DNA of 63,953 bases, filler included, from an uncultured Methanosarcinales archaeon (GTDB taxonomy: Archaea > Nanobdellota > Nanobdellia > Woesearchaeales > JAGLXL01), in assembly GCA_964472345.1 (NCBI GenBank). It is 4 parts of 4 records of this genome, joined end to end, with 100 filler letters (N's around TTAATTAATTAA, not from the genome) between each part and the next. Parts side by side here need not be neighbours in the genome. Positions count along the whole stretch, not along the records: positions 1 to 18,091 come from CAYYLB010000020.1; 3 more parts are not named here. One strand, given 5' to 3'. The first letter of the stretch is position 1. The number at the start of each line of letters is the position of its first letter. Position numbers: made by a program. Below are positions 15,001-18,000 of the stretch, one piece after another.

Positions 15001-18000
15001 GCGGTGATATAGATCTGAGCCGAAAAGGTTTTCATGGAAACACTACCTTTGCTTCCCCACAAGCCCCTTCACACGCTCATCGCCGCGCGGCTGGGCGCGC
15101 CTGCCCAGGCGATAGTATGTCTTTTCCGCGATGTTGCCCCAGCTGAACTCCCCCTGCTCCCGCTCCACTTTGTCAACCTCAAACTCCCCCAATTCCAGCC
15201 CCTTGCGCAGGTGGTAATAGATAACCCGCCGTGTCGCAGCAGGGAACAGCTGGGCATGCCACTTGCTGATCTGGTAGCCATACGAACTTCCCACAACAGA
15301 GAGGATCTCCACGATGTTCTGCCGGATCTGGCTCTGGGGCGGACGGCCGCGGCGTTGTTTCATTGTCCTGCCACGATGAGGCTGCTGGTCAGCTTCACCT
15401 GATTGTCTGAGCGGATATTGTCCATCACAAATGCACCGAGCGCCTCTGCGTTTTGCAGCTCAACTTCTGCGAGCAGGTCCCACTCCCCGAAGAGGATGAA
15501 CGCGCGTTTCACCTCTTTCATCGTCTTCAGCCTCTCCAGTATCTCCCGCTCATGGTTCCCGTTCAGCGCGACAAGCACGAATGCTTTCATTACCCTCACC
15601 CCAGGCGCAGAAAGGCGCAGTGGTTTAAATATATTTGCAGTATGGAAACGAATAATCCCTAAGCGGGGGTTTCGGGCGATGGGAGGCGGTCAAGCGCAAG
15701 TTTTTTTCAGCCGCATTAAACACAACATTTAAAAATTAAACAATGGCCTTAACCGCCATGAAATCCATCATCATCGCCCCCGTCGGCGACCACCTGCAGG
15801 ACCTGTTTGTCGCCCTGCGTGATTTTCCGCCGGAGCGCGTCATCCTGCTCACTCCTGCAGACCGCCTGCATCTCGCCGATGGCGCACGGCGCAGCCTCAG
15901 CCGCTTAAGCATCCCTGCGGAGATCAAAAAAATCACGGGGAATGTCTGGGAGGAGATGTTCCGTGCGGTCGCAGAGGTCAGCGAGCTGTATCAAGGCAAG
16001 AGCATCATTGTCCACACATCGACCGGGGACCGGATGGCAAGCTGCGCTGCGACGAGCGCTGCGTTCGTGAACGGCCTGAAAGCGATTGCGGTCGACGGGA
16101 AGGAGGCGATGCTGCTGCCGGTGCTGAAGTTCTCCTACTACCGGCTGCTGACGGAGAAGAAGATGCAGATCCTGAGGTTCATGTACCGGCACAACTGCTG
16201 CGCCTCGCTTGAAGAGCTTTCCAGGAGGCTGAAGATGTCGCTGCCGCTCGTCTCCTACCATATCAACGGGAACCTGAAAAGCGACGGGCTGAAGGATCTC
16301 GGGCTCGCCGAGACGGTGCACGAGAACAGCAGGACCCGGATCAGGCTCACGATCCTCGGCAGGCTGCTGGTGAAGGGGCACATCTCGTAGCCCCCGCTGA
16401 ACTCTGGCATCATAGTAAATCGCAATGATTCTGGAACTTCTTGGATGCGATTTACTATGCTAGCAAATCTCCCCAATGTCCAATCATGAAGGAGATTTGC
16501 TATCAGCTTGAGCCGGTAACGCCTTAAAACAGGCGCCGCACATCTTCCCGGTGCTTCCTGATAAGGAAATAAAGCGCGGCCCCCACCATCACTGCGCTCA
16601 GCCACTGCCCCGACGTCAGCCCGAGATGCGCTGCCTCTTCCTTCCAGAAGTCCAGCACGAACCTGCCAAGCCCCTCAAGCAGGACAAAGTTCCAGAACAC
16701 GAAGCCCTGCGCAAACTGCTTCCGTCCCAAAAACAGCAGCCACCCGAAGGCAATGAACCGCTTCACCATCTCATACAGCTGGTACGGGTGCCGGCATACA
16801 TCCCCTCCGCCGGTGTTCCGGAAGTTCACGCACCAGCGCACACTGCTTACCGTCCCCCAAAGCTCTCCGTTGATGAAGTTTGCAACTCTGCCAAGCGCGA
16901 GCGCGAGCATCATCGGCGCGCTCAGGATGTCCGCTAATTGCAGGAACGCGATCTTCTTCCTCCTGCAGAAGAGTGCGGCGGCAAGCGCGATGCCGGCAAG
17001 CCCGCCGTGGAAGCTCAGCCCGCCGCGCCACACCGCGAAAAACTCACCAACCGAAAAGAGGTCCGGCCGGTAAAACGCGAAGAAGAAGACGCGCGAGCCG
17101 ATCAGGACGCCGGCGATCAGCCAGACGATAAGGTCAGAAACCTCGTTTGCAGCCAGCGGCAGCTTCCCCTTCTTTTGTGCCCTTGCAAGCATTCCGTAGG
17201 CGAGCAGCGCCCCCAGGAAGAACACGAGTCCGTACCAGCGGATCTGGAATGGGCCGAGCTGCACCAGCACCGGGTTGAGGGTATGGATGAACATCTCAGA
17301 TCGTCCACGTCCAGGCGATGACTGCCCCGTAGATCAGCACGCCGAGCAGGAAGAATGAGGGGCTTCCCTTGCGCTTGCGGGGGATGACTTCCCGTGCCTC
17401 GAGGAAGAGCAGCAGGCCTGCGAGGAGGCCGAGCAAGCCGAAGTTGACGATGGAAGGGATGCTGACCATGCTCGCGAACGCCGCGCCGAGGAATGGGGCA
17501 CTTGAGAAAAAGAGGCGGGCGCGCCAGTGCTGGAAGCGGTGGCTGTGCGGCAGCACGTTGATAATCACATGCAGCGATACGGGGATGAAGTAGAGCATCC
17601 CGTTGAGGACGCTGGCGCTGATGAGGGAGACAAGGACAATGCCTATGAAGAAGTGGTAGAAAAAGATGGTGATGGCATGCTCATGCTCGACCTCCTCGAT
17701 GATCTGCTCCCGGGGGAGGTGCTGGTAGATCCATTTCTCGATGAGGTGGTAGCTCACGAAGCCAAGGAGCATGAAGACGAATATCAGGTGGGGGTAGGAT
17801 TGCGCTCCTGAATAGACCTGGGGGAAGAGGTGCAGGAAGATGTAGGTGACGGAGAGGCCGGCAACAAATGAGACAAAGCGCTCTTTATAGAAAGTGGCAT
17901 AGCGCGCGAGCATGCCTTCGGAGGCGTAATCAACCGCACCAAGGAGGAGCGTGAGCCCAAGGGCAAGGGCAGTTGGCGAAGCCATAGGGCGGGAAAACGA

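Follow-up and report, generated by a model that had tools for sequence, protein, structure and literature searches.

The gene examined here raises the question of whether an archaeon can mature its lipoproteins with enzymes of bacterial type. Archaea lack Lgt and Lsp homologues according to a 2018 review and to Hong et al. (2025), and Lgt is given as "absent from archaea" in a 2026 survey in mBio, as the first-pass annotation of this genome had summarized the current view. That annotation had also pointed out that the occurrence of both families, as such, is already on record. The supplementary table of Castelle et al. (2021; PMC8204110) lists LGT (fam06994) and Peptidase_A8 (fam04729) uncommented in module 15, each with a value of 0.83 in one lineage column, which we took to be Woesearchaeota. 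The words "lipoprotein" and "signal peptidase" are absent from the main text of that paper, which does not analyze residues, substrates, phylogeny, or Lit, nor how the system relates to AliA.

The window, i.e., the whole stretch of DNA that was analyzed (63,953 nucleotides, filler included), consists of joined contigs, with positions 1–18091 representing the entire contig C20 and the remainder other contigs split by N. The LspA and Lit genes of the same genome (labeled G000 among the genomes compared) therefore lie outside the window. The features of C20 relevant to this study are as follows.

16524..17294, minus strand: lgt, homologue of prolipoprotein diacylglyceryl transferase (256 aa; stop codon counted in the coordinates)
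17296..17985, minus strand: membrane-protein gene upstream of lgt (229 aa; 1 base between its end and the lgt start codon)
1798..2901, plus strand: aRF-1, an archaeal marker (TIGR03676, 423.2 bits vs. a cut-off of 234.7; eRF1 domains 1–3)
3941..4345, plus strand: aIF-5A, an archaeal marker (NF003076, 159.4 bits vs. 138; IF5A-like_N and eIF-5a domains)

The lgt open reading frame (ORF) scored 211.1 bits against PF01790 (cut-off 24.9), covering profile positions 1–239 of 240, and 164.9 bits against the equivalog TIGR00544 (cut-off 118.9), and it aligned to E. coli Lgt (5azb) with an E-value of 1.1e-31. Its AlphaFold2 model (pLDDT 91.8, pTM 0.88) had 5azb as the sole significant Foldseek match in the PDB (E 4e-13, TM 0.77/0.70; runner-up E 0.33). 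By family cut-offs, alignment, and modeled structure, the ORF is a genuine full-length Lgt homologue with the predicted fold of the E. coli enzyme, and it is the single Lgt match in the whole genome (1.26 Mb, 120 contigs).

The alignment to 5azb, in which the FHGGL and GRvaNFINGELWG motifs are visible, showed that equivalents of E. coli Y26, H103-GGL, R143, N146, E151, G154, and R239 are kept, and the corresponding residues (Y21, H96, R136, N139, E144, G147, and R211 in the numbering of the window protein) were invariant across 31 sequences from the order. The position of E. coli Tyr235 is occupied by E207, and those of Glu243 and Arg246, which belong to the head-domain network, by D215 and K218; all three positions matter in E. 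coli. The first-pass statement that the catalytic residues of Lgt and LspA are intact thus stands for the LspA Asp motifs and for most Lgt residues, and fails at Tyr235. Among 61 archaeal and 70 bacterial rows, Tyr at this position was found in 53 and 68, respectively, and is therefore not universal in the family; R143 was kept in all 61 archaeal rows and R239 in 60, whereas E243 and R246, each present in 70/70 bacterial rows, were kept in only 38/61 and 47/61 archaeal ones. Since G396, a genome of the same family as G000, also has Glu at the Tyr235 position, this residue is a fixed feature of the family and does not point to decay. In E. coli Lgt, mutants Y235F, L, and S do not complement, Y235T is partly active, and R246K is inactive, and the window copy, with E207, D215, and K218, could work differently from the E. 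coli enzyme. These substitutions lower our confidence in canonical activity of this particular copy and leave its homology unaffected.

The lgt gene and the membrane-protein gene upstream are probably co-transcribed. The latter matched no family in Pfam or NCBIfam profile searches, and among the 30 relatives examined neither its position next to lgt nor any operon around lgt was conserved. Neighbors of lgt in these relatives were mixed housekeeping genes, e.g., RPA, EF-2, and HerA, a variety indicating that lgt does not reside in an island. No rRNA, tRNA, or Rfam family was found within the window and no SSU rRNA in the whole bin, so that the identity of the genome rests on protein markers.

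Two further genes, each on a separate contig of G000, would complete the pathway.

C103:1320-1781, minus strand: LspA (PF01252, 128.4 bits vs. a cut-off of 25; TIGR00077, 107.8 vs. 73.95)
C104:1309-1851, plus strand: Lit-like gene (PF07314, 55.4 bits vs. a cut-off of 24)

Both Asp motifs of LspA (IDR and FNxAD) aligned to 6ryo and 5dir, with sNlIDRi and FNgADa pairing with GNfIDRv and FNiADs of 6ryo; the Asp residues of these motifs are presumably the catalytic ones. With Lgt and LspA both above Pfam and NCBIfam equivalog cut-offs and their motifs aligning to solved structures, the first-pass assignment of the two as genuine is upheld. The same annotation considered the Lit assignment weak, which is right insofar as the PF07314 match spans only profile positions 38–176 and the protein falls far below the equivalog NF051877 (38.5 vs. 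400 bits) and below TIGR01906 (47.2 vs. 74.8 bits). In an alignment to 7b0o, however, rEHlaDVr paired with rIHfvDVk, and FdtlHrilFapgsW with FvlfHkllFsndyW. B. cereus Lit has a catalytic His85/His153 dyad together with Phe157 and Trp162 (PMC8275575), and equivalents of all four were kept in 4/4 archaeal Lit-like homologues aligned (G000, G016, G085, and G097). Although lgt, lspA, and lit are dispersed in the order, the distance between lit and lgt was <150 nt in G293, G302, G229, and G307, and lit adjoined lspA in G260 and was ∼1.1 kb from it in G307. The kept His dyad and this proximity in several genomes make the assignment stronger than previously allowed. The link between Lit and Lgt is not strict, as two genomes (G104 and G123) carried Lit and DUF63 but lacked Lgt.

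In a sample of 101 genomes from the order, Lgt was found in 93 and LspA in 94; 87 had both, six Lgt alone, seven LspA alone, and one neither. Across 251 genomes of the class, the counts were 80 for Lgt, 78 for LspA, and 60 for Lit, with 76 genomes encoding both Lgt and LspA, four Lgt alone, two LspA alone, and 169 neither. The first-pass annotation had reported that the three genes co-occur across the order and in parts of the class, and although our counts differ because other genomes were sampled, they point in the same direction. Lgt was also present in G388 and G396, which belong to the same family as G000, and four single-contig genomes (G016, G025, G085, and G097) carried Lgt and LspA together with L15e, a protein whose profile matched, among the controls, only the four archaeal ones. 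A phylum-level sample contained no class beyond the one already sampled; as it includes two unpublished genomes, it is used here solely for the presence of Lgt in G388 and G396. Lgt in methanogens was considered on the strength of two "Methanosarcinales archaeon" records and rejected: these genomes are 0.9 and 1.1 Mb in size, had no McrA, and encode an Lgt that nests in the DPANN group, making their labels doubtful.

Lipobox Cys lipidation on secreted archaeal proteins is also the predicted task of AliA and AliB (arCOG02177/02178, DUF63) of Haloferax volcanii, and both this system and Lgt/LspA occur in DPANN archaea. HVO_2859 is a DUF63 family protein that also bears the name aliA, and we therefore equate DUF63 with AliA. 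DUF63 (PF01889) had no match in G000 or in four closed relatives, while the H. volcanii, M. jannaschii, and M. acetivorans controls matched, and it was found in 0/38 same-order genomes within the class sample. Lgt is limited to some families of the class and DUF63 is carried by others: Lgt/LspA occurred in 79 and AliA (DUF63) in 94 of the 251 class genomes, with zero having both above cut-off, the sole overlap being G192, whose Lgt match is a 17.7-bit fragment below cut-off. The two systems are thus mutually exclusive in the class, a finding new to this study. Hong et al. (2025) describe genomes with many predicted lipoproteins and no AliA/AliB and suggest further lipidation pathways. In the supplementary tables of that study, with columns as we interpret them, predicted lipoproteins make up 29–51% of secreted proteins in six Woesearchaeota rows, with 51% predicted for AR15 and 26% for AR20, and seven Woesearchaeota rows as well as AR15 and AR20 have 0 AliA and 0 AliB.

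A strict lipobox rule, requiring a hydrophobic h-region, matched 19 of 1607 called ORFs vs. 23 of 5233 shadow ORFs, the latter a weak control in that several of the shadow matches resemble real genes or lipoproteins. Gene calls were a crude hybrid of a length-greedy caller and a self-trained codon model, each of which miscalled (the latter giving 58% coding). A looser PROSITE-like rule matched 45/1522 called and 190/5318 shadow ORFs and was discarded as too loose. At the +1 position, Cys showed the strongest enrichment of any residue (2.8-fold over its composition). The earlier count of at least 15 lipobox proteins is of the same order as ours. Because the rule barely separates called from shadow ORFs, our enrichment figure is weak, and we rely instead on how well orthologues retain the lipobox. 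Candidates include PKD/Big_9, GH114, GH113, PLD-like, and DUF192 proteins, and in the DUF192 protein the lipobox Cys was kept in 22/29 orthologues, each from another family of the order and with differing signal peptides.

We put at roughly 80% the probability that this DPANN archaeon has a complete pathway of bacterial type for maturing lipoproteins and that lgt, whose activity is predicted from sequence, functions in it. This reading draws on the genes themselves, their catalytic motifs, their archaeal setting, lineage-wide co-occurrence, the conserved substrate lipobox, and the lack of DUF63. Secreted precursors would start with a signal peptide that has a lipobox (consensus [LVI][AST][GAS]C) at its end, Lgt would take the glyceryl-lipid portion from a lipid of the phosphatidylglycerol type and attach it to the Cys thiol, LspA, an aspartyl peptidase, would remove the signal peptide ahead of the lipidated Cys, and the Lit-family protein may afterwards remodel the N-terminus. 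The known bacterial counterpart proceeds from Lgt to LspA and in some cases to Lnt or Lit (E. coli, 5azb; S. aureus and P. aeruginosa, 6ryo and 5dir; B. cereus, 7b0o). It shares with the archaeal set the same families, with Lgt and LspA over curated cut-offs, the same Lgt fold, the kept Lgt motifs, the LspA Asp and Lit His dyads, and the lipobox signal-peptide architecture. Unlike the bacterial pathway, the archaeal set is dispersed in this order, has variable E243 and R246 across its Lgt clade and Glu for Tyr235 in the window copy, and resides in a host with a different complement of lipid genes.

Among the lipid genes tested in G000, the ester-lipid acyltransferases PlsY and PlsC and GGGP synthase had no match, and CDP-archaeol synthase (CarS) and CDP-alcohol transferases were present. 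For the core-lipid enzymes tested, this bears out the first-pass observation of head-group enzymes with no core-lipid synthesis. As core lipids are not made by the routes tested, the donor would be a scavenged lipid, which we infer to be either bacterial phosphatidylglycerol or archaetidylglycerol that CarS and the CDP-alcohol transferases have re-headed. Given this gene complement, the donor may be an ether lipid. In the Lit reaction, the amino group of the Cys receives an acyl chain that was ester-linked at sn-2, and ether-linked archaeol cannot supply one. It is possible, if doubtful, that the three-gene module would act on ester lipids, with diacylglycerol derived from phosphatidylglycerol scavenged from bacterial hosts or, in some lineages, self-made; the grounds for this suggestion are the kept His dyad of the Lit-like proteins and the proximity of lit to lgt or lspA in a number of genomes. 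Another bold possibility is that a family of bacterial Lgt became adapted to using archaetidylglycerol as a source of archaeol.

If the lgt, lspA, and lit contigs were bacterial DNA misplaced in an archaeal bin, the three genes would be an artefact of assembly or binning. As the first-pass annotation had cautioned, LspA and Lit do lie on short contigs (2741 and 2724 bases, or 2.7 kb), and the G+C contents of these contigs (0.63 and 0.62) are somewhat above the 0.57 of the genome, in whose bin no SSU rRNA was found. Yet archaeal genes are present on every one of the three (aRF-1 and aIF-5A on C20, aIF-1A adjoining LspA on C103, and a TIM of archaeal type on C104), the four single-contig relatives contradict such an origin, Lgt is present in most genomes of the order and its archaeal sequences group apart from bacterial ones, and estimated contamination is 0.31%. 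An artefact is therefore extremely improbable, and the earlier view that the genes are truly archaeal is confirmed by the markers on the same contigs and by the closed relatives. It is also unlikely that lgt, as a real archaeal gene, serves another role, either because this copy or the whole clade is degenerate or because it uses another acceptor or donor. To our knowledge, diacyl phosphatidylglycerol is normally missing from archaeal membranes, and the only substrates of LspA are Lgt products. The former, together with the lack of the tested ester-lipid acyltransferases in G000, the Glu at the Tyr235 position in the window copy and G396, and the relaxed head-domain network of the archaeal clade, would be in keeping with such a role, but the latter, combined with the tight co-occurrence of Lgt and LspA, speaks against it. 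So do the retention of R143, R239, H103, and the signature motif, the lipobox Cys kept in orthologues of one exported protein, and the lack of DUF63, the sole other known archaeal lipidation family, despite the many lipoproteins predicted in published tables.

In two Lgt trees, 40 archaeal rows separated from 70 bacterial ones (SH-aLRT 99, stem 0.23) and 50 archaeal rows, 20 of them from other orders, from 43 bacterial ones (SH-aLRT 97). All archaeal rows fell on one side of a branch in both, in agreement with the single archaeal clade previously proposed. Bacterial rows were taken from the 80 best tblastn matches to the window Lgt, mostly Pseudomonadota, Nitrospirota, and Thermodesulfobacteriota, and the trees were unrooted "quick" trees without CPR or Firmicutes rows, so that the direction and number of transfers can only be inferred. 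The clean split between the domains would also fit a pathway ancestral in archaea that predates the domain split, with AliA as a divergent descendant and no bacterial transfer; Hong et al. (2025) consider AliA possibly derived from Lgt. We regard this scenario as very unlikely, since the stem between the groups is short (0.23–0.26) compared with terminal branches of 0.4–0.9, and identity is 32–42% to the best bacterial matches, vs. 35–44% to the 30 order homologues and 33–50% to the named archaeal matches. Moreover, Lgt occurs only in some families of the class and DUF63 in others, PF01790 had no match in any of four archaeal control genomes, and published surveys report none in RefSeq archaea. 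Most likely, an ancestor within the class acquired lgt and lspA from bacteria in a single old transfer, with displacement of AliA, and lit was possibly part of the same event.

In a large order of DPANN archaea and in allied groups, Lgt/LspA would represent the missing lipidation pathway suggested by Hong et al. (2025), and a natural case of one lipidation system displaced by another. Lgt can no longer be taken as confined to bacteria, a correction with bearing on Lgt and LspA as antibacterial targets and on lipoproteins as bacterial signatures. The archaeal enzymes offer a direct route to asking whether Lgt can use archaeal ether lipids, and a genetic marker bearing on the membranes and hosts of uncultured symbionts. 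If the Lit-like proteins act as Lit, lipoproteins of Woesearchaeales would carry bacterial-type diacylglycerol, and their membranes would be bacterial or mixed, across the "lipid divide."

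An earlier first-pass annotation had proposed that this archaeal genome (G000) encodes bacterial-type lipoprotein maturation enzymes, a genuine Lgt and LspA plus a Lit-like protein, together with lipobox-bearing substrates. The observation is real and that interpretation is supported. The three genes are:

16524-17294, minus strand: lgt, an ORF of 256 residues on contig C20
C103:1320-1781, minus strand: lspA
C104:1309-1851, plus strand: lit-like gene

In profile searches Lgt, the single match across the whole genome, spanned PF01790 in full (211.1 bits, cut-off 24.9) and exceeded the NCBIfam equivalog TIGR00544 (164.9 bits, cut-off 118.9). 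It matched E. coli Lgt (5azb; E 1.1e-31), and its AlphaFold2 model (31 input sequences, mean pLDDT 91.8) had 5azb as sole significant PDB neighbor (E 4e-13, TM 0.77/0.70; next E 0.33). LspA is equally genuine, at 128.4 bits for PF01252 and 107.8 bits for TIGR00077 (cut-off 73.95), and both Asp-containing motifs align with those of 6ryo (E 4.3e-21). The Lit-like protein exceeded its Pfam cut-off (55.4 vs. 24 bits) and fell under the NCBIfam equivalog cut-off (38.5 vs. 400). It matched B. cereus Lit (7b0o; E 1.5e-6) and retains the equivalents of His85, Asp88, Val89, His153, Phe157, and Trp162, the dyad and conserved residues named for Lit in PMC8275575; homologues from the relatives G016, G085, and G097 share the two His, the Phe, and the Trp. 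The genes belong to known families, as ordinary members, in a setting that is out of the ordinary. A ZIP metal transporter and a Fur regulator adjoin lit (G000:C104:531-1304), and directly upstream of lgt lies a His-rich, perhaps transporter-like membrane protein with no family match (17296-17985).

Contamination is not a viable source of lgt, lspA, or lit, because archaeal genes share each contig and closed relatives carry Lgt and LspA alongside ribosomal protein L15e. Contig C20 encodes aRF-1 (423.2 bits vs. 234.7) and aIF-5A (159.4 vs. 138) 12-15 kb from lgt, aIF-1A adjoins lspA on C103, and a triose-phosphate isomerase of archaeal type adjoins lit on C104. The L15e profile, which among control genomes matched the four archaeal ones only, found L15e in G000 and in the single-contig same-order genomes G016, G025, G085, and G097, all four with Lgt, LspA, and L15e on one chromosome. 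G000 comprises 1.26 Mb in 120 contigs, with completeness and contamination estimated at 100% and 0.31%. Physical linkage to lgt is limited to window positions 1-18091, which are C20 in full, as spacers of N (18092-18191, 35730-35829, and 52417-52516) separate C20, C21, C22, and part of C23. The lgt contig also holds a glycogen-metabolism cluster (6572-13795) with a GH57 protein, a GT4 glycosyltransferase, a GalT-like transferase, an amylo-alpha-1,6-glucosidase domain protein, and a eukaryote-type glycogen synthase (PF05693, 552 bits). G+C drops to 0.37-0.38 at 52001-56000, against ∼0.57 genome-wide, and dips less, to 0.495, at C20 14001-16000; either region may be a foreign island.

The catalytic residues of Lgt had been described as intact, which holds in part. 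Alignment with 5azb showed FHGGL (H103) and GRxxNFINGELWG (R143, N146, E151, and G154) retained, and the equivalents of Y26, H103, R143, N146, E151, G154, and R239 are invariant in the window protein and 30 same-order homologues. The description fails at three positions, where Tyr235 is replaced by Glu207, Glu243 by Asp215, and Arg246 by Lys218. In E. coli, Y235F/L/S and all E243 and R246 mutants, R246K included, gave no complementation, and Y235T was partially active (PMC4728403). Across 61 archaeal and 70 bacterial aligned sequences, Tyr occupies the Tyr235 site in 53 and 68, Glu the Glu243 site in 38 and 70, and Arg the Arg246 site in 47 and 70, respectively; Glu at the Tyr235 site is confined to the window protein among these 131. 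Because Lgt from G396, which belongs to another genus of this family, has Glu there too (judged by eye), and the gene is otherwise intact, this Glu is a fixed family trait and not decay. A different lipid donor could, we infer, lie behind the looser head-domain network of the archaeal Lgt clade.

The order was sampled with 101 genomes, one per family: 87 had both genes, 6 had Lgt without LspA (93 with Lgt in total), 7 had LspA without Lgt (94 with LspA in total), and 1 had neither. Among 251 genomes sampled across the class, Lgt was matched in 80 (79 above cut-off), LspA in 78 (76), and Lit in 60 (60); 76 had both Lgt and LspA, four Lgt alone, two LspA alone, and 169 neither. Lgt was present in 38/38 same-order genomes of the class sample and in 58 of the 60 genomes with Lit, and the co-occurrence claimed for the three genes in the order and class is borne out by these counts. 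The lit gene lies ≤150 nt from lgt in four genomes (G293, G302, G229, and G307) and ≤2.5 kb from it in five more, and lspA adjoins lit in G260, with ∼1.1 kb between the two in G307. The three genes are scattered in the order to which the window belongs, and lgt has housekeeping genes of various kinds as neighbors in 30 relatives. Thiol-disulfide proteins (DsbA-like, GILT-like, or thioredoxin) adjoin lgt in 4/30 (L008:2214-2819, L009:3024-3716, L013:2286-3443, and L031:1139-1444). Some genomes have 3-6 Lgt-family matches (G122, G425, G082, G050, G070, and G014), low-scoring divergent copies (75-125 bits) included, and G232 lacks LspA and has a very divergent sole Lgt copy (54 bits, very long branch).

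Two quick, unrooted IQ-TREE trees (LG+C20 PMSF) set archaeal Lgt on one side of a branch, in line with the single clade proposed at first pass. The first (110 rows: the window Lgt, 30 order sequences, and 79 of 80 named sequences) had one branch (SH-aLRT 99, length 0.23) parting 40 archaeal from 70 bacterial rows. In the second (93 rows: the window Lgt, 20 of the 30 order sequences, 20 from other orders of the class, nine named archaeal, and 43 of the 70 bacterial), all 43 bacterial rows fell together on one side (SH-aLRT 97), and L172 and L171 formed very long archaeal branches. Five of the nine named archaeal rows are titled Candidatus Woesearchaeota archaeon (a sixth such record, the partial L053, was left out of the trees), and other titles in the group are Nanoarchaeota archaeon and "archaeon." Two records labeled uncultured Methanosarcinales archaeon (L054 and L069) have Lgt nested among DPANN sequences, and McrA had no match in their genomes (0.9 and 1.1 Mb); these labels look wrong. 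The window Lgt shares 32-42% identity with bacteria, 35-44% with the 30 same-order homologues, and 33-50% with named archaeal matches. Given the short stem, these identities, and the restriction of Lgt to part of one class, a single old transfer from bacteria is favored over vertical descent as the probable origin; unrooted trees whose named rows, bacterial ones included, are the best 80 tblastn hits name no donor.

The relation of Lgt/LspA to the archaeal lipidation enzyme AliA (hvo_2859, arCOG02177; Hong et al., PMC12462473) within the class is new here. PMC9426492 tabulates HVO_2859 as a "DUF63 family protein," and the DUF63 profile (PF01889) matched the controls H. volcanii, M. jannaschii, and M. 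acetivorans and none in Sulfolobus or bacteria. It had no match in G000 or the four closed relatives and matched 94 of the same 251 class genomes. With genome lists matched by hand, its overlap with Lgt was limited to one genome (G192), with an Lgt fragment of 17.7 bits, below cut-off, and its overlap with LspA was 0/251. The split runs between families: f108 had DUF63 in 9/9 and Lgt in 0/9, f109 DUF63 in 0/8 and Lgt in 8/8. Hong et al. reported several genomes rich in predicted lipoproteins that lack AliA and AliB. In their Supplementary Data 1 and 3, with columns as we interpret them, predicted lipoproteins make up 29-51% of secreted proteins in six Woesearchaeota genomes, 51% in archaeon AR15, and 26% in AR20, and arCOG02177 and arCOG02178 are both 0 in seven Woesearchaeota, AR15, and AR20. 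The bacterial Lgt/LspA pair thus fills exactly this gap.

Substrates were sought in G000 by applying a strict lipobox rule to the output of a crude gene caller; it selected 19/1607 called ORFs vs. 23/5233 shadow ORFs, a weak control because several shadow matches resemble real genes. Cys was the most over-represented +1 residue (2.8× its composition). Of 20 candidates scanned, five had Pfam families above cut-off (PKD/Big_9, GH114, GH113, PLD-like phosphodiesterase, and DUF192), the majority being families characteristic of exported proteins, and 15 had none. Conservation across DUF192 orthologues, present in 40/101 order genomes, is a better test than ORF counts: a lipobox Cys ends the N-terminal hydrophobic stretch in 22 of the 29 best orthologues from other genomes (one with a relaxed -3 position), and the other seven comprise one LLQS|C, four anchors with an uncleaved look, and two not judgeable. 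The count of 19 lipobox ORFs is of the same order as that first proposed. The PLD-like protein (G000:C55:1874-2932, L131; PLDc_2, 130.8 bits) could be a surface phospholipase D or nuclease for lipid or nucleotide scavenging.

What lipid Lgt uses was approached through the lipid genes. One head-group module was found:

G000:C36:2856-5182 (L152:1357-3683): CDP-archaeol synthase (CarS), with a CDP-alcohol phosphatidyltransferase on one side and a flippase-like gene on the other

CDP-archaeol synthase scored 156 bits vs. 148; its flanking transferase is nearest archaetidylinositol-phosphate synthase, the flippase-like gene belongs to TIGR00374, and a second CDP-alcohol transferase, nearest PgsA, is below cut-off (45.4 vs. 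109). Because searches of G000 found no GGGP synthase, PlsY, or PlsC-type acyltransferase, and the closed genomes G025 and G085, both with Lgt and LspA, lack even CarS and CDP-alcohol transferases, the donor would be a scavenged lipid. As to which lipid, archaetidylglycerol would fit the presence of CarS in G000, and ester lipids would fit the intact dyad of the Lit type, since Lit shifts an sn-2 ester acyl chain (PMC8275575). Against the ester-lipid argument, G104 and G123 (family f110, same class) pair a Lit-family gene with DUF63 and have neither Lgt nor LspA, so Lit-like proteins may serve the AliA route too, or have another role. Bacterial hosts have been proposed, and bacterial lipid genes reported for some Woesearchaeota, by Castelle et al. 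(PMC8204110).

Absence of Lgt and Lsp from archaea is stated in PMC6098224 and PMC12462473, and of Lgt in PMC13251419 (RefSeq search with PF01790, February 2021); the clash noted at first pass stands, with Lgt in 93/101 order genomes. Bare presence had also been flagged as already published: a supplementary table of PMC8204110 does place LGT and Peptidase_A8 in its module 15, each with a value of 0.83 in one lineage column and without comment, and "lipoprotein" and "signal peptidase" do not occur in its main text. A full-text literature search, with most subscription journals and bioRxiv supplements outside its reach, found no discussion of lgt/lspA in DPANN. We take it as certain that the genes are named in automatic database annotations of the MAGs concerned. 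An entire archaeal order, together with its allies, appears to use the bacterial lipoprotein route in place of AliA. This finding matters because it runs against what recent papers explicitly state and opens lipid-donor specificity to testing.
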